This document shows, one piece after another, positions 8,889 through 61,909 of a stretch of 64,000 nucleotides of DNA. The notes below the pieces were generated by a model. That model was not told the DNA's origin. It searched no databases and worked only from the letters and a program-made list of their open reading frames with translations. The DNA comes from Betaproteobacteria bacterium (GTDB lineage Bacteria; Pseudomonadota; Gammaproteobacteria; Burkholderiales; Usitatibacteraceae): the NCBI GenBank assembly GCA_016720855.1, contig JADKJU010000005.1, forward strand, positions 249,636 to 313,635, in the 5' to 3' direction. Numbering within the stretch: the first letter of the stretch is position 1; every line of letters starts with the position of its first letter. Position numbers and translations under genes: made by a program.

Positions 8889-8901
8889 GACCTTGTCCTG
8901 C

Positions 8902-10020
8902 TCAGGCCGCGACGAGCGGCTCCGGGTCGCTGAAGGCGTAGCCCAGCGCCTGCGCCACCTCGCGGTACGTGACCTTCCCTTCGCACACGTTCAGGCCGGA
9001 CATCAGATGCGGGTTGGCCGCGAGCGCCTTCTTCCAGCCGAGCGCCGCCAGTTGCTGCGTGAAGGGAAGCGTCGCGTTATTGAGCGCATACGTGGACGTG
9101 CGCGGCACCGCCCCGGGCATATTGGCCACGCAGTAGTGCACCACGCTGTCGACCACGTACGTGGGGTCGGTATGCGTGGTCGCGCGCGACGTCTCGAAAC
9201 AGCCGCCCTGGTCGATCGCCACGTCCACCACCACCGAGCCGGGCTTCATGCGCGCCACGTGCTCTCGCGTGACGAGTTTCGGCGCAGCCGCGCCCGGAAC
9301 CAGCACGCCCCCGATCACCAGGTCGGCCGACAGCAGGTGCGACTCGATGTTGTCGCGGTTTGAAAAGATGGTGATCGCCCGCGCGCCCAGCAGGCGTTCG
9401 ATGCGGCGAAGCGCGTCGATGCTGCGATCGATCACGACCACGATCGCGCCGGTGCCCACGGCGATCTGGGCGGCGTTCGATCCCACCACCCCCGCGCCGA
9501 GGATCACGATCTTGGTCGGCGCCACGCCCGCCACCCCTCCCAGCAGCACGCCCATCCCGCCGTGCGCCTTCTCCAGCGAATGCGCTCCCGCCTGGACGGC
9601 CATGCGCCCGGCGACCTCCGACATCGGCGCGAGCAGCGGCAACCCGCCGCCCTGTTGCGTCACGGTCTCGTAGGCGATGCACACGGCCCCGCTCGCCACG
9701 AGACCCTTGCACTGCTCGGGGTCCGGCGCCAGGTGAAGGTAGGTAAAGAGGACCTGCCCCGGCCGCAGCCGCCCGATCTCGACCGGTTGCGGCTCCTTCA
9801 CCTTCACGATCAGGTCGGCGGCGGCGAACACCTCGTCCGCCCCCGGCAATATCGTGGCGCCCGCCTTCTCGTAGACCGCGTCCGTCGCGCTGATGCCCGC
9901 GCCGGCGCCGCGCTCGACCACCACCTGGTGTCCTTGCGCCACGAGCTCGCGCACCGCGGAAGGCGTGAGGCCCACGCGGTATTCGTGGTCCTTGATTTCC
10001 TTCGGTACGCCGATGCGCAT
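8902..10020 (-). CDS. ald: alanine dehydrogenase
   Basis: I prefer the start MRIGVPKEIKDHEYRVGLTP (canonical Ald N-terminus). NAD fold ILGAGVVGSNAA. 372 aa. Confidence 0.9.
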   Translation of the reverse strand: MRIGVPKEIKDHEYRVGLTPSAVRELVAQGHQVVVERGAGAGISATDAVYEKAGATILPGADEVFAAADLIVKVKEPQPVEIGRLRPGQVLFTYLHLAPDPEQCKGLVASGAVCIAYETVTQQGGGLPLLAPMSEVAGRMAVQAGAHSLEKAHGGMGVLLGGVAGVAPTKIVILGAGVVGSNAAQIAVGTGAIVVVIDRSIDALRRIERLLGARAITIFSNRDNIESHLLSADLVIGGVLVPGAAAPKLVTREHVARMKPGSVVVDVAIDQGGCFETSRATTHTDPTYVVDSVVHYCVANMPGAVPRTSTYALNNATLPFTQQLAALGWKKALAANPHLMSGLNVCEGKVTYREVAQALGYAFSDPEPLVAA

Positions 10021-10100
10021 GGCGGCTCCGCTGTAGTGGCCGTCATCGGGCCGTTGCAAGGACCTGCGGCGTTCCTATCGACCCGGGCGCTTCGGGGCCG

Positions 10101-10931
10101 TCACGGCCGCTCGCCACGCGCAAGCCGTGCCTCGATGTCGTCCAGGCACGGGATCAGATCGGCAATCGAGTCGATCACGTAGTGCGCACCGCGCTGGTAC
10201 ATGGTCGGATAGATGCGGTCGCGATGCGCCTGCTTCACGCTCTCGGACATGGCGTTCCATTCGGCGAGCGGCACGCCCACCTCGTTGCCGGAGATCGCCA
10301 GGCCGATGGACCACGAGCCCGCGTTGATGCCCTCCTCGATGCCGGTGAGCGTGTCATCGACCTTCACGAGGGATTCGACCGGCGAGACCTGCAGCTCGAT
10401 CATGTTCTTGAGGACCATGTACGGGTACGGGCGGCCGGCAGGCACGTCGCCCGCGCCGCAGGTGTAGTCGGGGACGTAACCCTGCTTCTTCGCATCGGCC
10501 TGGTTGATGGCGAGCATGCCGGGCAGGTAGCCGGAGGTGGAGCCGATCCTGTAGCCCCGCCGGCGGCACTCCGCGATCACGTCGAGCGTGCCCGGAATGA
10601 GCGTCGAGTAATCGGAGAGGCACGCCTCCTGCATCGGCACGAAGTCGGCGAACATCCGGTCCACGTCGGCCGCGGTGGGTTCCTTGCCGTGCTTCTCGAC
10701 CCAGCGCTCCCGCACCGTCGGGATTTCCGAGATTCTCTGGATGTGGACCTTCTTGTGCGCCCCCATCGGCAGGCGGGCTTCGGCCATCGAGATCGGAACG
10801 CCCGCCTTCTCGTAGACCTTGATGAAGACCACCGCGGGCGCCATGCATCCGAAATCCATCGTCGTGCCTGCCCAGTCCAGGACAACGGCCTTCAGCTTGC
10901 CTCGGTACTGCCTCCGATACGTGAACGTCAT
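10101..10931 (-). CDS. phnX: phosphonoacetaldehyde hydrolase (phosphonatase)
   Basis: HAD motif I is VVLDWAGTT (Asp nucleophile). The Schiff-base Lys region is PMGAHKK. I prefer ATG 10931 (GGAG 12 nt upstream) over 10949 or 11036. Confidence 0.85.
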   Translation of the reverse strand: MTFTYRRQYRGKLKAVVLDWAGTTMDFGCMAPAVVFIKVYEKAGVPISMAEARLPMGAHKKVHIQRISEIPTVRERWVEKHGKEPTAADVDRMFADFVPMQEACLSDYSTLIPGTLDVIAECRRRGYRIGSTSGYLPGMLAINQADAKKQGYVPDYTCGAGDVPAGRPYPYMVLKNMIELQVSPVESLVKVDDTLTGIEEGINAGSWSIGLAISGNEVGVPLAEWNAMSESVKQAHRDRIYPTMYQRGAHYVIDSIADLIPCLDDIEARLARGERP

Positions 10932-49582: not shown

Positions 49583-50155
49583 ATGCCCGCTTCGCCGACC
49601 GAACAGTCCGGCGCCCCGTCCCCGGGGGACGCCCTCGGCACCTGCTACCGCTGCATGGCGCGAATGCTCGATCGCCTGGAGCGGCTCGCCGCCGAGTTCG
49701 ATTCCTCCTTGCACGAAGCGCCGCCCGCGGATGCTGCGGACCGCGCCGGCGCGCTGGTTGCCGACATCGACGAGGCGCTCGCCGTGCACATGGGGGACGA
49801 GGAAAAGGACATCTTCCCGGCCCTGCTCGCGGCGGCCGATTCCCCCGCCCGCCGGGCCCAGGCCTTCGAACTGGTCTCCTCGCTGCTGGTCGAGCACCAT
49901 GAACTGGCGGAGCTGTGGCACGCGCTTCGCATCCCGCTCCTCGCGCTGGGCAGCGGGGTCGCCGTCAGCCTGCCCGGCGGCACGGCCGCGGACTTCCTCC
50001 AATTCGCGCGGCGCCACCTGGAACGCGGGGAACTCGAGCTCGCCGACCTGATGCGCGTAATCGGCCCGCAAAGGTCACGCGAGATCGGCGTCGCCATGGC
50101 GCAGCGCCACGACGATACGCACCTGCGAATCAAGGACTGCCCGCTGAAGCCCTGA
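49583..50155 (+). CDS. hemerythrin (HHE cation-binding) domain protein
   Basis: 190 aa. HMGDEEKDIFPAL and EHHELAE motifs. GGAGGG Shine-Dalgarno upstream. Confidence 0.75.
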   Translation: MPASPTEQSGAPSPGDALGTCYRCMARMLDRLERLAAEFDSSLHEAPPADAADRAGALVADIDEALAVHMGDEEKDIFPALLAAADSPARRAQAFELVSSLLVEHHELAELWHALRIPLLALGSGVAVSLPGGTAADFLQFARRHLERGELELADLMRVIGPQRSREIGVAMAQRHDDTHLRIKDCPLKP

Positions 50156-50197: not shown

Positions 50198-51265
50198 TCA
50201 GCGCAGGGTTCTTGCGAGCCAGACGGCCGCAGTGAGGACGACGACCGCGCCGCCCTGGTGGGCGGTGGCGATGCCGACCGGCACGGCCATCAGCAGCGTC
50301 GTGATGCCGAGCACGACCTGGAGCAGCGTGGCACCGGCCAGCGTGCCGGCGGCAAGACGCGATTCCTTGCTTGCGGTGCGCGAGGCGAACACCCGCCACG
50401 CGAGGATCCACGCACCCGCGAGGACGACGAGCGCGAGCGTGCGGTGCACGAACTGCACGGTGGCCATGTTGTAGGCGAAATTGCGCCACCACGGCTCGAT
50501 CAGCAGGATCTCGGGCGGAACCCAGTGGCCGTTCATGAGTGGCCAGGTGTTGTAGGCGAAGCCGGCGCGGATGCCGGCCACGAACCCGCCAGTGAGCGCC
50601 ATCGCGAACACGACGACAGCGAAGGCGAGACCGGCGCGCCGCAGTGCGTCGGTCGCGCCCGACCGCGCCGGGCGCAGGATGCCATGCGCCACCCAGAACA
50701 TGCACGCGTATATGAGCAGCGCCAGGCCCAGGTGTGCCGTGAGCCGGAACTGGCTCACCTGCGGATCGTCCACCAGACCGCTCTTCACCATGTACCACCC
50801 CATCCCGCCCTGCAGCCCGCCCAGCAGCAGGATGCCCGCGAGCTTCCAGCCCAGGGGCCGGTCCAGCCGCCCGCGCAGCCAGAAGTAGAGGAAAGGCACG
50901 AAGAAGGCCACGCCGATGAGTCGCCCGAGCAGCCGATGGAAATACTCCCACCAGAAGATCGACTTGAACCCCTCGAGGCCCATGTCGTGGTTGCGCAGCC
51001 TGAACTCGGGCGTGAGCTTGTACTTGTCGAAGGTCTCGGCCCACTGCGCCTCGTTCAGGGGCGGGAGCGCGCCCACCAGGGGCTTCCACTCGACGATGGA
51101 CAGGCCGGAATGGGTGAGGCGGGTCGCCCCGCCCACCACGACCATCGCAAAGACCAGGGCGCAGCAGGCCAGCAGCCAGAAAGCCACAGCCCGGCGGCCC
51201 TTGCCCGGGGTCGCGTAAGGGGAGGCCGCCGCCGCGGCGATCGGGAGGGCGTTCACGGGGTCCAT
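50198..51265 (-). CDS. ctaA: heme A synthase (COX15/CtaA family, proteobacterial type)
   Basis: I prefer ATG at complement 51263-51265. GGATRLTHSGLSIVEWKP, WWEYFHRLLGR and FVHRTLA are conserved His-bearing helices. Confidence 0.85.
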   Translation of the reverse strand: MDPVNALPIAAAAASPYATPGKGRRAVAFWLLACCALVFAMVVVGGATRLTHSGLSIVEWKPLVGALPPLNEAQWAETFDKYKLTPEFRLRNHDMGLEGFKSIFWWEYFHRLLGRLIGVAFFVPFLYFWLRGRLDRPLGWKLAGILLLGGLQGGMGWYMVKSGLVDDPQVSQFRLTAHLGLALLIYACMFWVAHGILRPARSGATDALRRAGLAFAVVVFAMALTGGFVAGIRAGFAYNTWPLMNGHWVPPEILLIEPWWRNFAYNMATVQFVHRTLALVVLAGAWILAWRVFASRTASKESRLAAGTLAGATLLQVVLGITTLLMAVPVGIATAHQGGAVVVLTAAVWLARTLR

Positions 51266-51416: not shown

Positions 51417-51602
51417 ATGAGCCAGGTACCCGCCACGCCCGGTGCGGCCGACGATGCCGACGTGCACGACGAACCGATTCCGATGATGCAGCAACTCATC
51501 GACAACCCGTTCCTGCTCCTGTTCCTCGGGGTCGCGATGCCCACCGTCCTCTACATCGTCTGGGGCGTGATGGAAATCGTGGGCATCCCGCTCACCAAGT
51601 GA
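51417..51602 (+). CDS. small single-TM membrane protein heading the oxidase operon
   Basis: 61 aa with AGGAGA Shine-Dalgarno and one hydrophobic helix (FLLLFLGVAMPTVLYIVWGVMEIV). It may be analogous to small accessory subunits of B-type oxidases. Confidence 0.5.
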   Translation: MSQVPATPGAADDADVHDEPIPMMQQLIDNPFLLLFLGVAMPTVLYIVWGVMEIVGIPLTK

Positions 51603-51630: not shown

Positions 51631-52185
51631 ATGAGCGCCATCCAATCCCCGCCCCAGAGAGTCTGGTGGAAGCAACCCCTCGACCGAGTCGAAGGCACCT
51701 GGATCGTCATCGCCTTCGTGTGGTGCATGGTCATGTTCTTCATGATGCCGTACTGGCACGTCTACGGTAAGCAGAACCTCTCCAACGAGGCCTACCGCTC
51801 CACGCCCGAGGCGTTCCTCGCCAAGGCGCAGGCGATGGTGGACAAGCACACCGTGCGCACCGTCACGGAGCAGAACATTCCCGTCGTGCACCCCGTGCCG
51901 GGCGCCGACGTCTATCTCGTGGCGCGCCTGTGGCAGTGGTGGCCGGTGCTGGAACTCGAGGAAGGCCAGACCTACCGCCTGCACATCATGTCCACCGACT
52001 GGCTGCACGGCTTCTCCCTGCAGCCCGAGAACATCAACATCCAGGTGCATCCCGGCTACGAGCACGTCGTGACCATGACGCCCACCAAGGAAGGCACCTA
52101 CTCGATCATCTGCAACGAGTACTGCGGCATCAACCACCACACGATGGCGAGCAAGCTCTACGTCGTCAAACCGAAGAAGCAGTAG
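51631..52185 (+). CDS. heme-copper oxidase subunit II, single-TM, CuA cupredoxin domain (B-family/ba3-like)
   Basis: 184 aa. The CuA ligands are intact: DWLHGF ... CNEYCGINHHTM (C-x3-C-x3-H-x2-M). Collinear with ba3 subunit II (..DVIHGF....ICNQYCGLGHQNM). Confidence 0.85.
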   Translation: MSAIQSPPQRVWWKQPLDRVEGTWIVIAFVWCMVMFFMMPYWHVYGKQNLSNEAYRSTPEAFLAKAQAMVDKHTVRTVTEQNIPVVHPVPGADVYLVARLWQWWPVLELEEGQTYRLHIMSTDWLHGFSLQPENINIQVHPGYEHVVTMTPTKEGTYSIICNEYCGINHHTMASKLYVVKPKKQ

Positions 52186-52195
52186 GGAGATCGCC

Positions 52196-53926
52196 ATGGC
52201 CGTCAATCGCAATTTCCGCACCTGCCCGTCCACCGGACTCGTCTACCACGAGCCCGCCGAGGCGCTCATCCGCTGGAACGCCGTCGCCGGCGTCGTCTCG
52301 CTCCTCGTGGGCGGCGTCCTGGCCCTGCTGGTCACGCTCACGCGCTGGCCGGCGGTGAGGCTCCTGCCGCCCGACTGGTTCTACCTCGTGCTCACCGCGC
52401 ATGGCCTGGACATGCTGGTGTTCTGGATCATCTTCTTCGAGATCGCGGTGCTCTACTTCGCCGCCTCGACGCTGCTCAAGTGCCGCCTGGCGACGCCGAA
52501 GGTGGCCTGGGTGGCCTTCTGGCTGATGATCGTGGGCGCGATCACGAACAACGTCGCCGTGTTCAAGGGCGATTCCAGCGTCATGTTCACGTCCTACGTG
52601 CCGATGGGGGCTCACCCGCTCTTCTACCTCGGGCTCATCCTCTTCGCCGTGGGCGCGCTCGTCGCCTGCTTCGTGTTCTTCGGCACGCTCGTCGTGGGCA
52701 AGTCGGAGAAGACCTACAACGGCTCGATCCCGCTGGTGACCTTCGGCGCCGTGACCGCGGCGATCATCGCGGTATTCACCATCGCCGCGGGCGCCATCAT
52801 CCTGATACCGACCTTCATGTGGTCCGTGGGGCTGGTCTCGCACATCGACTCCCTCATGTACCGCACGGTCTGGTGGGCGTTCGGGCACTCCTCGCAGCAG
52901 ATCAACGTCGCCGCGCACGTGTCCGTGTGGTACGCGATCGCCGCCATCGTCTTCGGCGCCAAGCCGATGAGCGAGAAGGTGAGCCGCACGGCCTTCGTGC
53001 TCTACATCCTGTTCCTGCAGCTCGCGAGCGCGCACCACCTGCTCGCCGACCCGGGCCTCACCTCCAACTGGAAGATCTTCAACACCAGCTACGCGATGTA
53101 CCTCGCCGTGCTCGCCTCCATGGTGCACGGCCTCACGGTGCCGGGCGCGATCGAGGTGGCGCAGCGCGAGAAGGGCTTCAACAAGGGCCTTTTCGAGTGG
53201 CTGAGGAAGGCCCCGTGGGGCAATCCCAGCTTCTCGGGCATGTTCATGTCGCTCGTGGGCTTCGGCTTCCTGGGCGGGATCTCGGGCGTCATGATGGGCA
53301 CCGAGCAGTTGAACCTCATCATCCACAACACGATCTACGTGCCGGGCCACTTCCACGCGACGGTGGTCGTGGGAACCACGCTCGCCTTCATGGCGCTCAC
53401 GTACTTCCTGATCCCGACCCTTTTCCGGCGCGAACTGATGTTCCCGGCGATGGCCAAGTGGCAGACCTACGTCTATGGCCTGGGCATGATGGGATTCTCG
53501 GTCTTCATGATGGGCGCCGGAACGCTCGGCGTGCCGCGCCGCCATTGGGACATGGCCTTTTCCGGCGCGGTCCTGCCGCACGAGTTCCCCGGCACGGCCT
53601 ATCTCATGATGGGCCTCATGGCGGTCTCGGGCATCCTCGCGACCGTGGGCGGCGCGATGTTCCTCATCAACACGGTGGGGTCGGTGTTCCTCGGCAAGAA
53701 GATCCAGACGCCGGGCTTCGCCCGCGTGTCGGTGAAGGATGGCATGGCCCCGGCGCCGACGCCGGAATTCGCGGCGCCCGCAGTCCCCGCGGTGCACGGC
53801 TCCATCGGCATCGGCGGTTTCGTGGCGCCGGGCACCTTCGTGCTGGCGATGGTGTTCCTCACGTCTTTCATCCTCTACTACTTCGTGAACTGGAAGTACC
53901 TGTCGACCGTCTGGCCGCTGAAGTAG
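52196..53926 (+). CDS. heme-copper oxidase superfamily subunit I, B-family-like but lacking the cross-linked Tyr (NOR-like active site)
   Basis: 576 aa. The His ligands are LTAHG (helix II), WWAFGH (VI), SAHH (VII) and GHFHATV (X). Aligned by eye with Thermus ba3 RTLFWWTGHPIVY, it reads RTVWWAFGHSSQQ, so Gln occupies the Tyr237 position. Confidence 0.85.
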   Translation: MAVNRNFRTCPSTGLVYHEPAEALIRWNAVAGVVSLLVGGVLALLVTLTRWPAVRLLPPDWFYLVLTAHGLDMLVFWIIFFEIAVLYFAASTLLKCRLATPKVAWVAFWLMIVGAITNNVAVFKGDSSVMFTSYVPMGAHPLFYLGLILFAVGALVACFVFFGTLVVGKSEKTYNGSIPLVTFGAVTAAIIAVFTIAAGAIILIPTFMWSVGLVSHIDSLMYRTVWWAFGHSSQQINVAAHVSVWYAIAAIVFGAKPMSEKVSRTAFVLYILFLQLASAHHLLADPGLTSNWKIFNTSYAMYLAVLASMVHGLTVPGAIEVAQREKGFNKGLFEWLRKAPWGNPSFSGMFMSLVGFGFLGGISGVMMGTEQLNLIIHNTIYVPGHFHATVVVGTTLAFMALTYFLIPTLFRRELMFPAMAKWQTYVYGLGMMGFSVFMMGAGTLGVPRRHWDMAFSGAVLPHEFPGTAYLMMGLMAVSGILATVGGAMFLINTVGSVFLGKKIQTPGFARVSVKDGMAPAPTPEFAAPAVPAVHGSIGIGGFVAPGTFVLAMVFLTSFILYYFVNWKYLSTVWPLK

Positions 53927-53949: not shown

Positions 53950-54819
53950 ATGAACAGCCGCGTGAAACTCTTCTTCGACCTGTTCAAGCTCCGCATCGGC
54001 TTCGCGATCGGGCTCACCGCCCTGGCGGGGGCCCTCGCGGTCCCCGGCCGGCAGGCAGGCGCTTGGCAGGTGGCGCTCCTGGTCGCGTGCGTCATCGCCG
54101 CTTCGGCGGCGGCAGGCGCGTTCAACCAGTACGTCGAGCGCGACCTCGATGCGCGCATGGGACGCACGCGCGGCCGCGCCTTCGTCACCGGCCAGCTCAA
54201 GCACGGGCCGTTCTGGCTCGGCGTGATCGGCCTCATGCTGGCGCTTGCCGTGTGCGCTGCGGCGGTCGCCGTGAATGCCGTCGCCGCCCTGTTCGTGTTC
54301 CTGGGCGCCTTCTTCTACGGCGTCGTCTATACGGTCATCCTCAAGCGGCGCACGTGGATGAACATCGTGATCGGGGGCCTCGCCGGCAGCTTCGCGGTGC
54401 TCGCCGGGGCGACCGCCGTCACCCCGGGCGAGATCGGCCCCGTGGCCGCCTCGCTCGCCTGGGTGCTGTTCCTCTGGACGCCGCCGCACTTCTGGAGCCT
54501 CGCCATCGCCTTCCAGGACGACTACCGCGCCGCGGGCGTGCCGATGCTTCCGGTGGTCGTGGGCGAGGCCCGCGCGGCCCGGGTCGTGCTCGGCGGCACC
54601 GTCGTGCTCGTCGCCTCATCCTTCCTGCCGCTCCTCTTCGGCCTGGGCACCCTCTATGCGGCCGGCGCGATCGCCGGCGGACTCCTGTTCCTGCGCGGGG
54701 CCGCGCGCCTTGCGGCCGATCCTTCCCGCACCACGGCGATGGGGAGCTTCCATGCCTCCCTCGCCCAGCTCTCGCTCCTGCTCATCGGCGTGATCGCGGA
54801 CGCGGCCTGGCGGGCCTAG
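53950..54819 (+). CDS. ctaB: protoheme IX farnesyltransferase (heme O synthase)
   Basis: 289 aa UbiA-family protein. NQYVERDLDARMGRTRGR and WTPPHFWSLA motifs. Confidence 0.9.
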   Translation: MNSRVKLFFDLFKLRIGFAIGLTALAGALAVPGRQAGAWQVALLVACVIAASAAAGAFNQYVERDLDARMGRTRGRAFVTGQLKHGPFWLGVIGLMLALAVCAAAVAVNAVAALFVFLGAFFYGVVYTVILKRRTWMNIVIGGLAGSFAVLAGATAVTPGEIGPVAASLAWVLFLWTPPHFWSLAIAFQDDYRAAGVPMLPVVVGEARAARVVLGGTVVLVASSFLPLLFGLGTLYAAGAIAGGLLFLRGAARLAADPSRTTAMGSFHASLAQLSLLLIGVIADAAWRA

Positions 54820-54824
54820 CCCGC

Positions 54825-55658
54825 ATGGGTACCGGTTGCCGAACGCGCTGGCTGCAGACGGCGGCCGCGTTCGCCTTCGGGGTCGTCCTCGGGACCGCGC
54901 AGGCGCGTGCGGAATCCGGGGGCGCCGCCCTGGATGCGAACGCGACCCTCGAACGCAGCCAGCGCGCCCTCGGCAACCCGGTGGGCGACTACGCGTTCAA
55001 GGCGGCCGACGGCAAGCCGGTGCGGCTTTCGCAGTTCCGCGGCCGCCCGCTCCTCGTCAACTTCGTGTACACGGCCTGCTCGCAGGTCTGCCCGACCACC
55101 ACGCGATTTCTCGCGGGTGCGGTCGCCGAAGCCGATCGCATGCTCGGCCCCGGCCGCTATGCCGTGGCCACGATCGGCTTCAACTATCCCTATGACACGC
55201 CGGAGGCGATGCGCGCCTTCGCCCGCGCGCAGGGCATCGATCGCCGCGACTGGGTCTTCCTGAGCCCCGAGGCCGGGGTGGTGGAAAGCATCACCCGCGA
55301 CCTCGGGTTCAGCTTTGCCGCTTCCTCCGGCGGCTTCGACCATCTCACGCAAGTCACGCTCATCGACGAGGAAGGCCGCGTGGCCGCGCAGGTGTATGGC
55401 GAGAGCTTCGAGGTGCCGATGCTCGTGGGCCCGCTCAAGGCCCTGCTCACCAATGCTCCCCTGCCGCAATTCTCCGTCGCCAATCTCCTCGAGCGCGTTC
55501 GATTGCTGTGCACCGTGTATGATCCTCGAAGCGGGCGCTATCGCCTGGACTACAGCATCGTGCTCGAGATTCTCATCGGCGCGTCCATCGTGCTCGCCAC
55601 GTTCTTCTTCCTGTTCCGCGAATGGCAACGGCACCGGCGCCGGTTGCGCGCGGGCTGA
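54825..55658 (+). CDS. SCO1/SenC copper chaperone with C-terminal membrane-anchor extension
   Basis: 277 aa. Thioredoxin-fold CxxxC is FVYTACSQVCP. There is an extra ~70-aa tail ending in a TM helix (ILIGASIVLATFFFLF). Confidence 0.85.
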   Translation: MGTGCRTRWLQTAAAFAFGVVLGTAQARAESGGAALDANATLERSQRALGNPVGDYAFKAADGKPVRLSQFRGRPLLVNFVYTACSQVCPTTTRFLAGAVAEADRMLGPGRYAVATIGFNYPYDTPEAMRAFARAQGIDRRDWVFLSPEAGVVESITRDLGFSFAASSGGFDHLTQVTLIDEEGRVAAQVYGESFEVPMLVGPLKALLTNAPLPQFSVANLLERVRLLCTVYDPRSGRYRLDYSIVLEILIGASIVLATFFFLFREWQRHRRRLRAG

Positions 55659-55662
55659 TGCC

Positions 55663-57600
55663 ATGCTCGCCCTCCTGCAAAGGCTCCTGCAGCGGCTCTT
55701 CCTCGGCGCGGAAAGGATCGCCAACGCCATCTTCGGGGAACGCCTCAATCCGCTCTACCACCTCGGGGCGATCAGCTACTACCTGTTCTGGGTCGTGCTC
55801 GCGAGCGGGCTCTACCTCTACGCCTTCTTCGACACGAGCGTGACCGGCGCCTACGCTTCCGTCGAGCGCCTCACCCACGACCAGCGATGGATCGGCGGGA
55901 TCCTCAGGAGCCTGCACCGCTACGCCTCCGACGGCATGGTGCTCACCATGGTGCTGCACCTGACGCGCCACTTCGCCTTCGACCGGCACCGCGGCTTCCG
56001 CTGGTTCTCGTGGGTGAGCGGCGTGATCCTGCTCTGGCTCGTGTACGCCTCGGGCATCAACGGCTACATGCTGCCCTGGGACCAGCTCGCGCAGTTCACC
56101 GTGACCGCCACCGCCGAGTGGTTCGACGCGCTGCCGGTGTTCAACGGCCTGCTCATGCGCAATTTCCTGAGCGCCGACAGCGTGAACGACCGGTTCTTCT
56201 CCCTGCTCTCGTTCCTGCACATCGGCCTGCCGCTGGGCGTGCTGGCGCTCCTGTGGATCCACACGCACCGCGTGCCGCAGGCGAAGACGCTGCCGCCCAA
56301 CCCGCTCATGGTCGCGCTCGGCGCGGCGATGATCGCGCTCTCCGTCGTGAAGCCGGCGCTGAGCCAGCTGCCCGCCGACCTCGCGACGACGGCGTCCTCG
56401 ATCGAGTTCGACTGGTTCTACCTGCCTACCTACGCCCTCATCTACCGCTGGACGCCCGGCGCCGTCTGGGCGCTCGTCGTCCCCCTCACGATTCTCGCCG
56501 TGCTGGCACCGTGGCTGCCGCCGAAGTTCGGGCGGCGCGCCATTCGCGCGTTCCACGTGCTGGCCCATCCCGACAATCGCATCGTCCCGGTGAAGGAGGA
56601 CGAGTCGATCCTCGACGCCTGCCTGCGCGAAGGGCTTCCCATGCCCTTCGATTGCCGCAACGGCGGCTGCGGCGTTTGCAAGTGCACGGTGCTGCACGGG
56701 GAGGTGGAATTGGGCGCCTACCAGGAAAGTGCCCTGTCCACCGCGGACCGCGAGGCCGGCCGCGTGCTCTCCTGCGTGGCGAAGCCCCTTTCCGATGTCG
56801 AGATCGAATACGAACCCACGGACGAATCCGCGCGTCCCGTCACCCTGCATGACGCGCGAGTGGTCTCCATGGACCTGCTCGCGCCGGACGTCATGCGCGT
56901 TCGCCTCGAGGTCGAAGGGGGAGCGAGGATCCCCTTCTACGCCGGCCAGTACATCAACATCCTGCTGGACGACGGCCAGAAGCGCGCCTTCTCGTTCGCC
57001 ACCCCTCCGCACGAGCCCGGCCCGATCGAGCTGCACATCCGCCGCATCGAAGGCGGGCGATTCACCACGCACGTCTTCACCGCCATGAAGGTCGGCGATC
57101 ATATTCGCTTCGAGGGACCGGTGGGCTCCTTCTTCCTGCGCGAGGACGGGGACAAGCCCGTCATCTTCGTGGCCGGGGCCACCGGATTCGCACCCGTGAA
57201 GAGCATGGTGGAGCACGCGCTGCATGCCGGCGTGACCCGGCCCATGGTGCTCTACTGGGGCACGCGCAACCTCGCCGACATGTACCTTCGCGAACTTCCC
57301 GAGCGCTGGGCGAAGGAGCATGCGAACTTCCGCTTCGTTCCCGTGCTCTCCGATGCGGTGCCCGGCGACGGCTGGGAGGGCAGGAAGGGCCTTGTCCACG
57401 AGGCGATCCTCGCCGACTATCCCGACCTCGGGGGGCATCGCATCTACGCCTGCGGCTCGGTGAAGATGGTCGAGGCCGCGCAACCTGCGTTCGCCAAGCA
57501 GGGGCTCTCGCCCGACGACTGCTTTTCCGATGCGTTCAAGCTCGCACCGCGCATCCATTCGAAGGACGCCGATCTCGTGCGCCTGGGGGGGCGCCCATGA
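55663..57600 (+). CDS. fusion protein: di-heme cytochrome b (bc1/b6-type N-domain) + plant-type [2Fe-2S] ferredoxin + FAD/NAD(P)H ferredoxin-reductase domain
   Basis: 645 aa. Two His pairs are each spaced 14 residues apart (SLHRYASDGMVLTMVLH and FLHIGLPLGVLALLWIH). The 2Fe-2S motif is CRNGGCGVCKC...SCVA. FNR motifs are RAFSFA, FVAGATGFAP and YACGS. Confidence 0.85.
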   Translation: MLALLQRLLQRLFLGAERIANAIFGERLNPLYHLGAISYYLFWVVLASGLYLYAFFDTSVTGAYASVERLTHDQRWIGGILRSLHRYASDGMVLTMVLHLTRHFAFDRHRGFRWFSWVSGVILLWLVYASGINGYMLPWDQLAQFTVTATAEWFDALPVFNGLLMRNFLSADSVNDRFFSLLSFLHIGLPLGVLALLWIHTHRVPQAKTLPPNPLMVALGAAMIALSVVKPALSQLPADLATTASSIEFDWFYLPTYALIYRWTPGAVWALVVPLTILAVLAPWLPPKFGRRAIRAFHVLAHPDNRIVPVKEDESILDACLREGLPMPFDCRNGGCGVCKCTVLHGEVELGAYQESALSTADREAGRVLSCVAKPLSDVEIEYEPTDESARPVTLHDARVVSMDLLAPDVMRVRLEVEGGARIPFYAGQYINILLDDGQKRAFSFATPPHEPGPIELHIRRIEGGRFTTHVFTAMKVGDHIRFEGPVGSFFLREDGDKPVIFVAGATGFAPVKSMVEHALHAGVTRPMVLYWGTRNLADMYLRELPERWAKEHANFRFVPVLSDAVPGDGWEGRKGLVHEAILADYPDLGGHRIYACGSVKMVEAAQPAFAKQGLSPDDCFSDAFKLAPRIHSKDADLVRLGGRP

Positions 57601-58097
57601 ACCGCCCGCTGCGCTACCTCCTGCAGGGCCTCCTCTATGGCGCCTTCGCGGCCACCCTGGGCTATTTCTCGACCTCGCCGGCGTTCGAGCCGCTTCCCCC
57701 GGGCCACGCGCTCATCCGCCTGTCGCTCAACCACGCCGGACAACGCAAGGTGGCCTGCCGCACGCGCACGCCCGAGGAACTCGCGAAACTGGCGCCCAAC
57801 ATGCGGGCAGCGGAAGACTGCTCGCGCGAGCGCGCGCCCGTGCTGGTGAAAGTGGAGCTCAATGGCAAGTCCGTGGCCGACATCGTCGCGGCGCCGACGG
57901 GCCTGTCGCGCGACGGCGCGTCGGTGGCCTACCGGCGCATACCCGTCGTCGCGGGCACGTACCTCGTGAAGGTGAGCATCGCGGACAACGCGGCGGGACT
58001 TTTCGACCGCGTGCGTGAGGAGGAAGTGCGTCTCGAGCCGGGCCGCGTGCTGGTGATCGACTTCGAACCCGGCAAGGGCGGGATCGTGTTGCGCTAG
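57597..58097 (+). CDS. 166-aa membrane-anchored hypothetical protein
   Basis: ATGA overlap with the preceding gene and 2 nt from the next. One N-terminal TM (YLLQGLLYGAFAATLGYF). Strong GC3 coding signal. No motif recognised. Confidence 0.6.
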   Translation: MNRPLRYLLQGLLYGAFAATLGYFSTSPAFEPLPPGHALIRLSLNHAGQRKVACRTRTPEELAKLAPNMRAAEDCSRERAPVLVKVELNGKSVADIVAAPTGLSRDGASVAYRRIPVVAGTYLVKVSIADNAAGLFDRVREEEVRLEPGRVLVIDFEPGKGGIVLR

Positions 58098-58099
58098 CC

Positions 58100-59677
58100 A
58101 TGAAAGCCGCCTCCCTGTCGCTTCCCCGCCCCGGCCGTGCCGCGCTCGTCGTGGAGCGGGTGGACGCGCTCTTCGACCGCGCCTTCGGCCAGCGCCTGAA
58201 CCCGTGGCGGCATCTCGGCGCGCTCGGCTTCCTGTTCTTCTGGATCTGCTGCGCCTCGGGCATCTGGATCTACGTCGGCTACGACACCAGCACCCTCGGC
58301 GCGCACGAGAGCCTGGCCGCGATGGACCGCAACGAGTGGCCGCTTGGCGCGCTGGCGCGCGCGCTGCACCGCTACAGCGCCGACGCCCTCGTGGTGGTGA
58401 CCGCGCTTCACCTCGCGCGGGAACTGGCGCGCCGGCACTACGCGGCGTTCCGCCTCTACGCGTGGCTCACCGGGCTCGTCGTCCTGGTGCTGATGTTCGC
58501 CGCCGGCATCGGCGGCTACTGGCTGCCCTGGGACCAGCTCGCGCAGTGGAGCCTCACGGCCACCACGGAATGGTTCGACGCGCTGCCGGTCTTCGACGGC
58601 GCCCTGTCGCGCAACGTCATCGCCGGCAGCCAGGTGAACGACCGCTTCTTCTCCCTCCTCATCTTCCTGCACATCGGCCTGCCGCTCGCCATGCTCGGCG
58701 CGATGTGGGCGCACGTGCAGCGCGTGAGCCCCGCACGCACCAATCCGCCGGGCGCGCTGGGGTGGGGATCCCTCGCCATGCTGGCGGCGCTTTGCCTCGC
58801 CAAGCCCGTCTCGCTGATGCCTGCGGCCGACCTGGCTTTCCTGCCCGCCAGGATCCCCGTCGACTGGTTCTATCTCTTCCCGCACCCGCTCATGGCCTGG
58901 CTCGGACCCGACGGGCTGTGGTGGGCGACGGCCGCCTTTCTCGCGGGCCTCGCAACCCTGCCGTGGGCCACGCGCGTCGCGCGCGCACCGGCGGCCCGCG
59001 TGAGCCTGGCCAACTGCAACGGCTGTGCGCGCTGCTTCGCGGACTGCCCGTACGACGCGGTGGTGATGGTGGCGCGCACCGACGCGCGTCCGCATCCGCG
59101 TCAGGCACAGGTGAACCCTGACCTGTGCGCGGGCTGCGGCATCTGCACCGGCGCCTGCCCATCGTCCACGCCGTTCCGCCGGGACGAGGCGCTGGTCACC
59201 GGCATCGACATGCCCTCCATGGCCATCGGCGAAATGCGCGACCGGCTGGAGGCGCGCACGGCTGCCCTCGTGGGCCGCCCGCGCATCGTGGTCTTCGGTT
59301 GCCGCTGGGGAGCGGATAGCGAAAGCCTCGCAGGGCCCTCCACCGCCGCGATCGAATTCGTCTGCGGCGCGATGCTGCCCCCCTCGTTCGTGGAATACGC
59401 GCTGCGCGCAGGGGCCGACGGCGTGCTCGTCGCCAGTTGCCGCGAAGGCGACTGCGAGTTCCGCACCGGCGACCAGCTCATCGCTGCGCGGCTGGGCGCC
59501 GAGCGCAAGCCTGCATTGCGATCGAGCGTGGCGCGTGAGCGCGTCCGGCTGGTCCCCGCCGGGCGCACCGATACCGGATTCCTGCGCACGCAGCTCGATG
59601 CCTTCCGCGCGGACCTCGAACGACTCGAATCCCGCCATGCCTCACCCCCCAAACGCCAGGAGAAGCACCATGGCTAG
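58100..59677 (+). CDS. fusion protein: di-heme cytochrome b + 2x[4Fe-4S] ferredoxin + MvhD/FlpD-like (hydrogenase iron-sulfur subunit) domain
   Basis: 525 aa. The cytochrome b part is paralogous to 55663-56500 (ALHRYSADALVVVTALH and FLHIGLPLAMLGAMWAH). Cluster motifs are CNGCARCFADCP and CAGCGICTGACP. The MvhD-like segment is IVVFGCRWGA...FVCGAMLPPSFVEYALRAGADGVLVASCREGDCEF. Confidence 0.8.
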   Translation: MKAASLSLPRPGRAALVVERVDALFDRAFGQRLNPWRHLGALGFLFFWICCASGIWIYVGYDTSTLGAHESLAAMDRNEWPLGALARALHRYSADALVVVTALHLARELARRHYAAFRLYAWLTGLVVLVLMFAAGIGGYWLPWDQLAQWSLTATTEWFDALPVFDGALSRNVIAGSQVNDRFFSLLIFLHIGLPLAMLGAMWAHVQRVSPARTNPPGALGWGSLAMLAALCLAKPVSLMPAADLAFLPARIPVDWFYLFPHPLMAWLGPDGLWWATAAFLAGLATLPWATRVARAPAARVSLANCNGCARCFADCPYDAVVMVARTDARPHPRQAQVNPDLCAGCGICTGACPSSTPFRRDEALVTGIDMPSMAIGEMRDRLEARTAALVGRPRIVVFGCRWGADSESLAGPSTAAIEFVCGAMLPPSFVEYALRAGADGVLVASCREGDCEFRTGDQLIAARLGAERKPALRSSVARERVRLVPAGRTDTGFLRTQLDAFRADLERLESRHASPPKRQEKHHG

Positions 59678-61097
59678 CCTTCACTCCGCCCATGCCCACT
59701 CCCTCGCTTCGGCTGCCGACCAATCGGCGAGCGGCACCACATTCGGGATCACCGTGGGGCGCGACGCCTCCGCGCGCCTCGCGACCGGCTGGCTCGCGCT
59801 CGGCATCGCCGCGCTCGTCGGATCCGGCGTGTTCTCGCTCCTGCTCGTGCTCGCGCGCACGCCGGGGCTCAAGGAAATCTTCCCCGTCGCCGATTTCTTC
59901 CAGGTGGCGCTCGTCGCGCACGTGGACCTGTCGGTCCTCGTCTGGTTCCTTGCCTTCGCGGGCGTGCTGTGGAGCCTTGCGTGCGATGCCCGCGGCATCG
60001 CCGTGGGCTGGGTCGCCCTGGCGCTGTGCGCCGCCGGGACGCTGGCGCTTTGCGTGGCCCCGCTCGCGGGGAACGCGGTGCCGGTGCTGGCCAACTACAT
60101 CCCCGTCATCGACAACGCCGCGTTCCTGGGCGGTCTTGCCGCCATCGGCGCCGGCGTCGCGCTTGCGGCGACGCGCACGTTCTGGGCGGCTCGCGCCTTT
60201 GCCCCGACCCTCGACGGCGAGTCGGCGCTACGCTGGGGAATCCTCGGATCGGCCGTCGCGACGGCCATTGCCCTGGCCGCCTTCGGCTGGTCGTGGATGG
60301 AGCTCTCGCCGCACCTCGAGCGCAAGGCCTACTACGAGCTGCTCTTCTGGGGCGGCGGCCACGTGCTGCAGTTCACGTGGACCCTGCTCATGCTCGCCGG
60401 CTGGCTGTGGCTTGCGAGCGCTCTGGGGCTGCGCCCGGCACTTTCGCCTCGCGTGACGCTTCTCGTCTTCACGATCGCGCTGGCCTGCGTGTTCGTCACC
60501 CCCGTCATCTACATCGCCCACCCGGTCGCCTCGGTGGAGCACCACAAGCTGCAAACCTGGCTCATGCGTTTCGGCGGCGGGCTCGCGATCCCGCCGGTTC
60601 TCCTCGCGCTCCTGTGGGCGATGCGCAGCCTGCCATCCCTCGACGCGCAGAAGCGCCCGATCTTCGGGGCGCTCGCGGCCTCCATCGGGCTCTTCGCGGC
60701 CGGCGGCCTCATCGGCTTTGCCATCAGCGGGGCCAACGTGAAGATCCCGGCGCACTATCACGGCTGCATCGTCGGGGTGACGCTCGCGTTCATGGGACTG
60801 GCCTACCACCTCCTGCCGCAGCTCGGTTTCGCCGCGCCGCGCTCGCGTCTGGCCGCGTGGCAGCCCTGGCTCTACGGCGGAGGGCAGCTCGCGCACATCG
60901 TGGGCCTGGTGTGGTCGGGCGGATACGGCGTTGAACGCAAGGTGGCGGGCGCCGCGCAGGTGCTGCGCACGCCGCAGGAGGTGGCGGGCATGGGGCTCAT
61001 GGGCCTGGGCGGCCTGGTAGCGATCCTGGGCGGCCTCGCGTTCGTGATCGTCGTGATCGGCGCCCTGCGTCGTCCCGCCGGCGCCGAGACCGCCTGA
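59670..61097 (+). CDS. highly divergent heme-copper-oxidase subunit-I homologue (12 TM) retaining all six canonical His ligands
   Basis: I prefer ATG 59670 (AGGAGA Shine-Dalgarno). 475 aa. His84 (LVAHVD), His231 (LLFWGGGH), His291/292 (VEHH) and His362/364 (AHYHG) sit at nearly the same positions as ba3 H72, H233, H282/283 and H384/386. There is no Tyr at His+4 (HVLQF). Confidence 0.65.
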   Translation: MASLHSAHAHSLASAADQSASGTTFGITVGRDASARLATGWLALGIAALVGSGVFSLLLVLARTPGLKEIFPVADFFQVALVAHVDLSVLVWFLAFAGVLWSLACDARGIAVGWVALALCAAGTLALCVAPLAGNAVPVLANYIPVIDNAAFLGGLAAIGAGVALAATRTFWAARAFAPTLDGESALRWGILGSAVATAIALAAFGWSWMELSPHLERKAYYELLFWGGGHVLQFTWTLLMLAGWLWLASALGLRPALSPRVTLLVFTIALACVFVTPVIYIAHPVASVEHHKLQTWLMRFGGGLAIPPVLLALLWAMRSLPSLDAQKRPIFGALAASIGLFAAGGLIGFAISGANVKIPAHYHGCIVGVTLAFMGLAYHLLPQLGFAAPRSRLAAWQPWLYGGGQLAHIVGLVWSGGYGVERKVAGAAQVLRTPQEVAGMGLMGLGGLVAILGGLAFVIVVIGALRRPAGAETA

Positions 61098-61108
61098 GCG
61101 CACCGGTC

Positions 61109-61909
61109 ATGACGCGCGAAGAGCGCATGCTTTCCGCGACCGCGGCCGCATGCGCGGCGCTGGTCTTCATCATCGTCGCTGCCAGCGCCTGGCTGAGGCT
61201 CGTGGCCGTGCCCTGTCCGCCGGCAGGGTGCGAGGGATTCACGCTCACCGATGCCGTGCGCCTCGCGCACCGCGTGGCCGCCATGGGCGTGACGGTCCTG
61301 GCCCTCGTCATCATCGCGCTGGCGTGGAAGGCGCCCCGGCGCTGGGGCCTGCGCATCGCCGCGGCCATCCTCTTCGGCCTCGTGGCCGCGCTCGCCGTCA
61401 TCGGCCGCCGGTCGGCGGGAGCCGCCCCGCCCGAGGTGATGCTCGCCAACCTGCTGGGGGGCCTCACGCTTCTTGCGGTCTCCGTGGCCCTGGCCGTCGC
61501 CCCGCGCCAGCCGCGGGGACGGATCGCACTCCCCTTCGCTGCCGCAGCGTTGCTGTTCGCCGTGTCCACAGGGACGGGGGGCCTGCTGGTCATGGCACCG
61601 CCGGCCGACACCGCGTCGCTGGGCCTCGCCCATCGCGCCCTTTCCTGGGCCACCCTGGCGGGCTGGGGGCTGCTGGCGTTCGCAAGCGCACCCCCGGCCG
61701 GTGTACGTGCGGCAACGCGCCTCGCCGCCGCGCTCATGGCGCTTCAGGTCCTGCTCGCGCTGTCGTTGCCCGCCGGGCCACTGGCGCGTTGGCTTCACAA
61801 CCTGCTCACGTCCGCGGCGCTTCTCCCCGTCATTGCTGCAGCGCTGTCCTGCCGGGCCCCCTTGCGCCCCGATCCCGCGCACCCCGAACGCCTGCCTGCC
61901 GGATCCTGA
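61109..61909 (+). CDS. polytopic membrane protein, CtaA/COX15-like (putative)
   Basis: 266 aa with about 8 hydrophobic segments. A Cys pair lies in the first loop (CPPAGC), followed by AHRVAAMG. Later helices carry His (LAHRAL, WLHNLL). The family call is by pattern only. Confidence 0.4.
   Translation: MTREERMLSATAAACAALVFIIVAASAWLRLVAVPCPPAGCEGFTLTDAVRLAHRVAAMGVTVLALVIIALAWKAPRRWGLRIAAAILFGLVAALAVIGRRSAGAAPPEVMLANLLGGLTLLAVSVALAVAPRQPRGRIALPFAAAALLFAVSTGTGGLLVMAPPADTASLGLAHRALSWATLAGWGLLAFASAPPAGVRAATRLAAALMALQVLLALSLPAGPLARWLHNLLTSAALLPVIAAALSCRAPLRPDPAHPERLPAGS

Follow-up and report, generated by a model that had tools for sequence, protein, structure and literature searches.

The stretch analysed here, 64,000 nucleotides of contig JADKJU010000005.1 (the window), comes from a metagenome-assembled genome annotated "Betaproteobacteria bacterium" (locus tags IPP91_). 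It contains cybFNR, a single open reading frame (ORF) of 645 amino acids on the plus strand at 55663-57600 (ATG at 55663, stop codon at 57598-57600), whose product joins a six-helix cytochrome b to a ferredoxin and a flavin-dependent NAD(P)H reductase. The gene starts 4 nucleotides after the TGA (55656-55658) of a copper-chaperone (SCO) gene, and its homologues share the same start Met. The features of cybFNR are listed below, with their basis in brackets; AF2 stands for AlphaFold2.

55663..57600, plus strand: cybFNR, cytochrome b, [2Fe-2S] ferredoxin and FAD/NAD(P)H reductase (one ORF, five Pfam domains, full-length homologues)
55663..56532, plus strand: cytochrome b module, residues 1-290 (DSSP of the AF2 model, hydropathy, best solved relative cytochrome b6)
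55915..55917, plus strand: His85 in helix B, predicted ligand of the haem on the positive (P) side, bL (invariant; alignment to bc1)
55957..55959, plus strand: His99 in helix B, predicted ligand of the haem on the negative (N) side, bH (invariant)
56218..56220, plus strand: His186 in helix D, predicted bL ligand (invariant)
56260..56262, plus strand: His200 in helix D, predicted bH ligand (invariant)
56407..56424, plus strand: Qo-type motif F249-D-W-F-Y-L254 in the ef loop, PEWYFL in bc1 (conservation; matches the PDWF motif)
56548..56817, plus strand: plant-type [2Fe-2S] ferredoxin domain with Cys331, 336, 339 and 371 (Pfam Fer2; Cys invariant)
56848..57138, plus strand: FAD-binding beta-barrel with R441-x-F-S444 (Pfam FAD_binding_6; motif invariant)
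57160..57537, plus strand: NAD(P)H-binding domain with G505-x-T-G-F-A-P511, Y595-A-C-G-S599 and F625 (Pfam NAD_binding_1; Foldseek match to Fre, 1qfj, TMt 0.91)
57538..57597, plus strand: C-terminal tail with a conserved (V/K)LGG end, modelled as disordered (homologue alignment, AF2 model)

All Pfam matches of cybFNR exceeded the curated cut-offs: Cytochrome_B at residues 26-201 (E 3e-23; the membrane part also matched Cytochrom_B_N_2), Fer2 at 304-375, FAD_binding_6 at 398-490 and NAD_binding_1 at 502-607. The AF2 model, built from a 69-row alignment, had a predicted local distance difference test (pLDDT) score of 79.5 and a predicted template modelling score (pTM) of 0.74. A word-indexed homologue search returned 3979 proteins with E <= 1e-5; all 120 that were listed of these were 63-89% identical to cybFNR, 579-666 amino acids long and carried all five Pfam domains. 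They came from JGI, ENA, NCBI and Logan assemblies, which are independent, and the same architecture in all of them ruled out that the assembly had joined two genes, an artefact that the original prediction had named as one way in which it could fail. Furthermore, one genome per species was scanned with patterns taken from the cytochrome b part. At least 600 stretches matched the pattern, 594 of which encode relatives, and most or the whole of cybFNR is covered by the best 80. Nearly all of these 80 carriers were uncultured Burkholderiales (Usitatibacteraceae and Casimicrobiaceae); the one isolate among them, Pelomicrobium sp. G1 (locus L034), is a cultured carrier and makes experiments feasible. 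Because clustering at 50% left only one full-length representative (P0121), the complete fusion would seem to be a compact, young family. A plasmid collection held no full-length cybFNR, and gave an annotated cluster of a related fusion on a Defluviimonas plasmid (see below).

The membrane half has six transmembrane (TM) helices according to DSSP of the AF2 model, namely A (30-54), B (75-105), C (114-131), D (174-203), E (213-229) and F (265-284), and the model also contains short cd1 and cd2 helices and an ef helix. Helices E and F are the two beyond the first four and match helices E and F of bc1, or subunit IV. The original prediction had described a bc1-type membrane domain of 330 amino acids with two His pairs, each spaced 14 residues, and extra helices. 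The spacing (His85/His99 and His186/His200) and the extra helices were borne out, whereas the module is about 290 amino acids long; homology to cytochrome b was likewise correct, but the best solved relative was cytochrome b6 (E 9e-23), followed by the cytochrome b of bc1 (E about 1e-11). As the same prediction had required, both His pairs were conserved: they were invariant in 69 full-length homologues and in 22 diverse cytochrome b fusions. Across these 22 relatives (39-62% identity) R82, G35, G49, G120, G134, D140, D250 and P231 were invariant together with the four His, and R102 was near-invariant (at least 90%). On the model of bc1, we read G35, G49, G120 and G134 as the Gly residues of helices A and C that contact the haems, and R82 and R102 as the Arg that bind the haem propionates. 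On the bovine register, in which H83/H182 presumably bind bL and H97/H196 bH, His85/His186 would be the ligand pair of the P-side haem and His99/His200 that of the N-side haem.

Because there are six TM helices and a positive-inside charge bias, the reductase is predicted to be cytoplasmic, with cybFNR N-in/C-in as in bc1 and b6f. The segments assigned to the cytoplasmic side carry 13 Lys and Arg in 65 residues, and the periplasmic loops 4 in 98, plus 11 acidic residues; no export signal was found on cybFNR. A periplasmic reductase, which would have overturned the original prediction, was ruled out by the helix count and the charge bias.

Helices E and F with the loop between them form the region that makes up the Qo site in subunit IV and bc1. 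Here the cybFNR segment IEFDWFYLPTYALIYR aligned with IKPEWYFLFAYAILR of bc1, the ef-loop Qo motif, and in the resulting Qo-type FDWF (F249-D-W-F252) D250 was invariant and W251 at least 90% conserved across all fusion classes. The cd1 helix (GYMLPWDQ...ALP158) was in register with bc1, with no indels. By its two His pairs, its Gly/Arg set and its ef-loop Qo motif the membrane half is a cytochrome b, though one with no Rieske, cytochrome c1 or cytochrome f partner encoded in the cluster. It had no Pfam match to the ferric-reductase domain (PF01794) that would place it in the NOX family. A heme cn as in b6f was ruled out as well: the position of b6 Cys35, which we take to be the heme cn ligand, is His33 in cybFNR and Tyr in most homologues.

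A linker of about 10 residues leads from helix F to the [2Fe-2S] domain. For the C-terminal 350 amino acids the best solved relatives were GcoB (5ogx, E 1e-50, 35% identity), BenC, T4moF and CarAd, followed by Fre (1qfj, TMt 0.91) and NqrF (Foldseek E about 1e-22; TIGR01941 E 1e-32), and the order Fer2-FAD-NAD, the four [2Fe-2S] Cys, the FAD motif and the NAD motif are those of the BenC/GcoB type. Cys331/336/339/371, R441-A-F-S, G505-A-T-G-F-A-P, Y595-A-C-G-S and F625 were invariant. The module is thus the complete ferredoxin/reductase of the oxygenase-reductase type that had been proposed. None of the NCBIfam equivalog cut-offs was reached (the BenC model gave 207 bits against a cut-off of 430), and the scan of the window ORFs at 27-64 kb showed no partner oxygenase gene. 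Behind strand 2, the "YWG(T/V)R" segment is similar to Fre and GcoB, and the resemblance to these two is suggestive of NADH rather than NADPH as the likelier substrate. The last 20 residues run past the usual end of BenC-type proteins; the disordered tail with its conserved (V/K)LGG could be a docking peptide.

The six-helix cytochrome b of the cybFNR type was also found joined to two other C-terminal modules. The most widespread class, 500-700 amino acids long, combines it with 2x[4Fe-4S] and MvhD/FlpD (cyb-Fer4-FlpD, hereafter cybFlpD), and a member of it lies in the window, with a cytochrome b module 41% identical to that of cybFNR. The other, P0155 (827 amino acids), carries flavodoxin, FAD_binding_1 and NAD_binding_1, an NADPH module like that of cytochrome-P450 reductase (CPR). 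In all three classes the domain adjoining the cytochrome b is by Pfam order a one-electron carrier: Fer2, [4Fe-4S] or flavodoxin. Because two unrelated NAD(P)H-oxidising modules have been joined to the same cytochrome b, which is the strongest argument at sequence level, NAD(P)H oxidation with electrons passed into the haems may be suggested as the selected function.

The genes around cybFNR in the window are listed below.

49583..50155, plus strand: hemerythrin-domain protein (Pfam)
50198..51220, minus strand: haem A synthase CtaA, start approximate (Pfam COX15-CtaA, E 7e-112)
about 51417-51602, plus strand: small one-helix ORF (position)
51631..52185, plus strand: COX2-like subunit II with intact CuA ligands, H...CNEYCGINHHTM (domain search, conservation)
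52196..53926, plus strand: COX1, B-family-related subunit I, six His ligands, Tyr replaced by Gln in GHSSQQ, sNOR-like (ba3 alignment)
53950..54819, plus strand: haem O synthase CtaB/CyoE (Pfam UbiA)
54825..55658, plus strand: SCO/SenC copper chaperone with CSQVC (Pfam SCO1-SenC)
57597..58097, plus strand: p166 (4-nucleotide overlap with the cybFNR stop)
58100..59677, plus strand: cybFlpD, paralogous six-TM cytochrome b, 2x[4Fe-4S] and MvhD/FlpD (Pfam)
59670..61097, plus strand: HCO2, very divergent subunit I of a haem-copper oxidase (HCO) (Pfam COX1, E 2e-16)
61109-61909, plus strand: membrane protein of 266 amino acids
61961..62674, plus strand: CRP/FNR-family regulator without N-terminal Cys cluster (Pfam and sequence)

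The junctions are tight: 4 nucleotides lie between SCO and cybFNR, cybFNR and p166 overlap by 4, and 2 separate p166 from cybFlpD. Among the best 80 loci fetched, counting for each gene the genomes with enough flanking sequence, COX2 was found upstream of cybFNR in 51/53, COX1 in 51/53, CtaB in 52/53 and SCO in 74/75; p166 (77/77), cybFlpD (64/65) and HCO2 (51/51) completed the set. The order COX2-COX1-CtaB-SCO-cybFNR-p166-cybFlpD-HCO2 is therefore near-universal, and the placing of cybFNR in an oxidase operon directly after SCO, already proposed for the window, extends to its relatives. The claim that the cluster lacks a cytochrome c and a Rieske protein also held: CxxCH occurred in no ORF of at least 40 amino acids between 45 and 64 kb, so that a cytochrome c gene was not seen in the cluster, and the Rieske motif C.H...C..H was found nowhere in the window. 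Further nqr genes were not present among the window ORFs scanned.

Several smaller points concern the neighbourhood. The small ORF upstream of COX2 keeps its place in L001, L002, L088 and L093 (L numbers denote loci, P numbers proteins) and may be the equivalent of subunit IIa of B-type oxidases. The hemerythrin gene, upstream of ctaA in the window, could serve NO/O2 sensing or be a cytoplasmic redox partner. From its missing N-terminal Cys cluster the CRP/FNR regulator looks like Dnr/NnrR; with up to 1 mismatch allowed, the whole window gave no FNR/Dnr box (TTGAT-N4-ATCAA). Two lineages have a DsrC-like gene within a few kb of the cluster (L001, 21410-21745; L083, 13071-13409). The region at 27-48 kb of the window holds unrelated metabolism.

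The word "oxidase" needs care. COX1 best matched the ba3 oxidase of Thermus (E about 1e-49), with HH, HxH and all six His ligands kept. However, its GHSSQQ aligned with ba3 GHPIVY, so that the cross-linked Tyr237 is replaced by Gln, a change invariant in 61 homologues. eNOR, sNOR and nNOR, which have been proposed to be NO reductases, are B-family-related HCOs with a CuA subunit and without this Tyr (PMC11214002). COX1 and COX2 show the sNOR traits, being B-family-related with three CuB/FeB His, no cross-linked Tyr and a CuA subunit II. Because the Tyr is absent, an sNOR-type NO reductase is, by sequence, the likelier identity of COX1, and an oxygen reductase the less likely one. Thus, of the "oxidase operon" in the original prediction, the haem-copper genes around cybFNR stand and oxygen reduction by COX1 is the less likely part. 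The label "cbb3-type cytochrome c oxidase subunit I", given by the Prokaryotic Genome Annotation Pipeline to the equivalent gene on the Defluviimonas plasmid, is misleading. HCO2 conserves H, GH, (E)HH and HYH, with no Tyr at H+4 (GHVLQF). It had no sequence match in the PDB and no adjoining cupredoxin or cytochrome c subunit, and may represent an undescribed HCO family. In one closely related metagenome-assembled genome (L001/L012, 14034-15457) HCO2 was called as two pieces (355 and 119 amino acids), which suggests a frameshift or an assembly error.

p166 had no Pfam or NCBIfam match. In other lineages a homologue of it is joined, behind a TM helix, to the C-terminus of a cybFlpD of about 690 amino acids (P0136, P0137, P0159, P0244, P0259). 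Because it is joined there to the paralogous cytochrome b, p166 is, by this Rosetta-stone argument, predicted to be a genuine subunit of the cytochrome b complexes. Its AF2 model (pLDDT 91) consists of an N-terminal TM helix and a periplasmic Ig-like beta-sandwich, for which there was no significant PDB match beyond generic Ig-like sandwiches; H46, C54, the EELAKLAPNMR helix and C75 were strictly conserved. A hidden Rieske or cupredoxin carrier was ruled out, as neither such a fold match nor a metal motif was found. From the model, p166 is likely a structural, non-redox subunit on the periplasmic side.

To place the cluster in a wider setting, nine loci of distant cybFlpD homologues were fetched, and 7/9 adjoined HCO-cluster genes: COX1, UbiA and SCO at L083, L085, L086, L088 and L093, UbiA and SCO at L091, and SCO at L084. 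On the short contigs L089, L090 and L092 no oxidase gene was seen. NirS was present at three of the distant loci, and NnrS, hemerythrin and CRP-family genes recurred. For example, the plasmid of Defluviimonas (Alphaproteobacteria) has the order small ORF, COX2-like, "cbb3-type subunit I", cyoE, SCO, cybFlpD (annotated "cytochrome b N-terminal domain-containing protein"), a hypothetical protein of 172 amino acids and hemerythrin. L093 repeats this order and continues with CRP, NnrS, cupredoxin, a multihaem protein and a cytochrome cd1 nitrite reductase, and L085 is arranged like it. L084 and L091 carry SCO, cybFlpD joined to p166, and hemerythrin; altogether a hemerythrin gene directly follows cybFlpD-p166 in four other lineages (L084, L088, L091, L093). 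L083, which has the CPR-type fusion (8001-10484), runs COX1, UbiA, cybFlpD, p167, HCO2, PCuAC, CtaG, SCO, cyb-CPR and NnrS. The cybFlpD type is the usual partner of sNOR-like clusters in other lineages. The ancestral module appears to have been an sNOR-like oxidase with its assembly genes, cybFlpD, p166 and hemerythrin in an NO or denitrification setting, to which the lineage of the window and that of L083 would each have added HCO2 and an NAD(P)H-type cytochrome b.

We propose, with a probability of about one half, that cybFNR spans the membrane as the subunit which oxidises NAD(P)H and feeds electrons into the haem-copper reductase system of its operon. In this proposal cytoplasmic NAD(P)H would pass a hydride to FAD (step 1), and FAD would pass single electrons to the [2Fe-2S] cluster, the short linker keeping the ferredoxin domain at the cytoplasmic face (step 2). 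From there electrons would reach the N-side haem bH (step 3) and then the P-side haem bL (step 4), and would leave at the Qo-like pocket formed by the cd helices and the ef-loop FDWF, either via a bound quinone or by direct docking (step 5). The acceptor would be the CuA subunit of the Tyr-less sNOR-like oxidase, the CuA-less HCO2, or both. p166 would act as the structural periplasmic subunit, and cybFlpD would be a second input module of the same kind taking its electrons from an Fe-S donor. The domains, the ligands, the topology, the conservation, the synteny, the status of p166 as a subunit and the comparable CPR-type fusion are what the sequence analysis itself shows. We infer steps 1-4 from the cofactor-binding residues, the topology, the domain order and the usual direction of BenC- and CPR-type reductases; the direction of flow, the identity of the acceptor and the physiological role are likewise inferred.

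Two findings support the direction. The closest relatives of the module (GcoB, BenC, T4moF, CarAd, Fre and NqrF) are NADH-to-acceptor reductases, and a separate CPR-like NADPH fusion lies in an equivalent cluster beside NnrS (L083). There is also a bacterial precedent in MsrQ, a haem b membrane protein which passes electrons coming from an NADH oxidoreductase in the cytosol on to the periplasmic MsrP (PMC12525009). Since electrons would move from the N to the P side, membrane potential would be consumed rather than built, and such a route would fit the detoxification of NO (or O2) or the removal of surplus reductant and not the conservation of energy. Hmp and NorVW are comparable detoxification routes.

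Step 5 is the weak point of the proposal, and it is here that most of the evidence against it gathers. The candidates for the acceptor are the CuA domain, HCO2, or a quinone in the Qo-like pocket that serves either oxidase; delivery to the CuA site, as originally predicted, is pure conjecture, and HCO2 or a quinone could equally be the acceptor. CuA oxidases are normally fed by soluble cytochrome c or cupredoxins, which may be encoded elsewhere in the genome; at L002 a cytochrome c gene lies at a distance of about 8 kb, and at L085 and L093 a cupredoxin lies in the cluster. In bc1, haem bL is too far from its P-side partner for direct transfer without quinol, and a direct step from bL to CuA is not self-evident. 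Quinol/quinone chemistry would explain the invariant Qo-type Asp and the strongly conserved P-side surface no worse than protein docking. Furthermore, clusters with only the CuA oxidase carried cybFlpD and p166 and no NAD(P)H-type cytochrome b (a small sample), and the NAD(P)H-type fusions occurred only where HCO2 was present (among few clusters examined), so cybFNR may serve HCO2 rather than CuA. Experimental work on any member of the family was not found in the searchable literature.

The involvement of a quinone is plausible from sequence, because the Qo-motif Asp is invariant and the P-side cd/ef surface conserved, and the same features lead to the most serious alternative, which we nevertheless regard as unlikely. 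Here cybFNR would be a non-pumping NAD(P)H:quinone oxidoreductase whose haems reduce pool quinone, in the P-side Qo-like pocket or at an N-side site, while the oxidases draw on quinol or on the ordinary respiratory chain; the shared operon would then be a matter of co-regulation or of a local supply of quinol, e.g., to HCO2. The conservation of FDWF and of the in-register cd1 helix (GYMLPWDQ...P158) across all fusion classes is what this would predict, and HCO2, having no cupredoxin or cytochrome c subunit, could be quinol-dependent. In L089 a menaquinone-biosynthesis gene adjoins cybFlpD-p166. MsrQ, the functional analogue, carries a bound ubiquinone which may act as its acceptor (PMC12525009). 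However, membrane potential is wasted if electrons from the cytoplasm are spent on quinone at the P side, and quinone reduction is already served by the ordinary NDH enzymes. Nor would a general dehydrogenase be expected to show a strict 1:1 synteny with the structural and assembly genes of oxidases; moreover, the heme cn Cys is replaced by His33, and no recognisable Qi-site signature was established.

Much less probable is the reverse direction, a Rieske-less bifurcating complex in which quinol is oxidised at the Qo-like site, CuA plays the part of the Rieske protein and the second electron travels from bL over bH, the [2Fe-2S] cluster and FAD to NAD(P)+. It would account for a Qo motif kept in a window with no Rieske gene, and the low-potential-type clusters of cybFlpD (2x[4Fe-4S] with MvhD) are typical of bifurcating systems. 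Production of NAD(P)H has been proposed for Rieske/cytochrome b complexes of anammox bacteria that include NAD(P)-binding oxidoreductase subunits (PMC12954380; PMC5600118). BenC- and CPR-type reductases, in contrast, run from NAD(P)H to an acceptor, and the CPR-type fusion would be especially hard to reverse. The energetics are also unfavourable: by calculation from textbook potentials (ubiquinone +90 mV, NAD+ -320 mV, against the membrane potential) the acceptor would need about +650 mV or higher, whereas CuA lies near +250 mV. The scheme is therefore unlikely unless the organisms use menaquinone, with which an Asp at position 2 of the Qo motif correlates. Its boldest form, for which we see only a slim chance, is a Rieske-less machine resembling a Q cycle, where a mobile CuA domain takes the first electron and the second is driven inward to NAD(P)H; if true, NO/O2 reduction would directly pay for reductant synthesis. 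That the cytochrome b mainly anchors a cytoplasmic reaction to the membrane or taps quinol for it (e.g., for the hemerythrin di-iron protein, or Fe-S repair), with no export of electrons to the periplasm, is about equally improbable: hemerythrin follows cybFlpD-p166 in the four lineages above and is present in the cluster of the window, and four-helix di-haem cytochromes commonly anchor cytoplasmic or periplasmic oxidoreductases, but anchoring alone would not need both haems, the P-side loops and the periplasmic p166 to be conserved, and the hemerythrin gene of the window does not adjoin cybFNR.

If the proposed route from NADH through cybFNR to the haem-copper enzymes is true, it would amount to an NAD(P)H:NO (or O2) reductase that works independently of the respiratory chain, and to a further, independently assembled bacterial system of NAD(P)H-driven transmembrane electron export alongside NOX and Fre-MsrQ. 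The near-obligatory pairing of sNOR-like enzymes with a Rieske-less cytochrome b provides a concrete donor hypothesis for sNOR-type oxidases, enzymes proposed to rank among the major N2O sources of nitrifiers and denitrifiers (PMC11214002). In addition, cybFNR is a natural experiment on the Qo pocket of cytochrome b without a Rieske protein.

The fusion type itself is already known. Kao and Hunte (2014; PMC4122944) catalogued a "PDWF-FeS clade" and gave its function as unknown; its members have an xDWF Qo motif, C-terminal non-Rieske Fe-S domains and no Rieske gene in the cluster, with 4Fe-4S and MvhD in Magnetospirillum and Turneriella and a "ferredoxin and flavin oxidoreductase" in Alicycliphilus denitrificans BC (PMC4122944). 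cybFNR has these traits (xDWF, a non-Rieske Fe-S/flavin fusion, no Rieske gene) and is, assigned by description, a further member of this catalogued, uncharacterised kind; both of the listed architectures are present in the window, as cybFNR and cybFlpD. Kao and Hunte (PMC4122944) and Dibrova et al. (2017; PMC5600118) list the architecture and describe no link to sNOR-like enzymes or HCO2, no p166 and no CPR variant. The operon link to the sNOR-like and HCO2 oxidases, the p166 subunit and the CPR-type analogue appear to go beyond those papers. A characterised cytochrome b-FNR fusion was not found in the searchable literature, nor was such a fusion discussed in the searchable sNOR literature.

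Among better-known systems, cytochrome b6 with subunit IV and bc1 share with cybFNR two bis-His haems, the haem-contact Gly, the propionate Arg, the cd1 helix and the ef-loop Qo motif. Unlike b6f and bc1, cybFNR has no Rieske protein, no cytochrome c1 or f and no heme cn Cys, and its membrane part ends after helix F; since its redox module is joined on the N side, a bc1-like Q cycle is not possible. BenC, GcoB, T4moF, CarAd and Fre have the same domain order and motifs, but they are soluble and reduce oxygenases or free flavin, whereas cybFNR is membrane-tethered. The closest homologous tethered input module is NqrF of Na+-NQR, a membrane-tethered [2Fe-2S]-FAD-NADH module that also feeds a transmembrane path. 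It differs in having a single TM helix and in having Nqr subunits and flavins rather than b haems as its electron acceptors, and against the model of Na+-NQR subunit F (TIGR01941) cybFNR scored 113 bits, below the cut-off of 295.

The original prediction had called cybFNR an analogue of the NOX/FRE type built from unrelated parts. This is true of the membrane domains, but the dehydrogenase domain of NOX presumably belongs to the same FNR superfamily as the cybFNR reductase. The likeness to NOX, FRE, STEAP and MsrQ-Fre is functional, in that electrons pass from NAD(P)H over flavin and one or more transmembrane b haems to a P-side acceptor (PMC12525009). They differ in the unrelated membrane domain and in their acceptors, which are O2, Fe(III) or MsrP, against the presumed enzyme complex or quinone of cybFNR.

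The sNOR cluster of ammonia oxidisers (norS-norY-senC-orf1) resembles that of the window in its CuA subunit II, its Tyr-less subunit I, SenC/SCO and a further gene, a likeness that is one of gene order and missing Tyr; the window differs by the added ctaB, cybFNR and HCO2. In N. europaea, NE0681 ("orf1", beside senC and unnamed) was co-induced 2.2-fold under O2 limitation, and norSY-like clusters with cybFlpD-p166 after SCO exist in Alpha- and Betaproteobacteria. Finally, the Rieske/cytochrome b complexes of anammox bacteria resemble cybFNR in that an Fe-S flavoprotein linked to NAD(P) is associated with their cytochrome b on the N side, while they keep the Rieske protein, are built from separate subunits, use menaquinone and are proposed to run in the direction of NAD(P)H.

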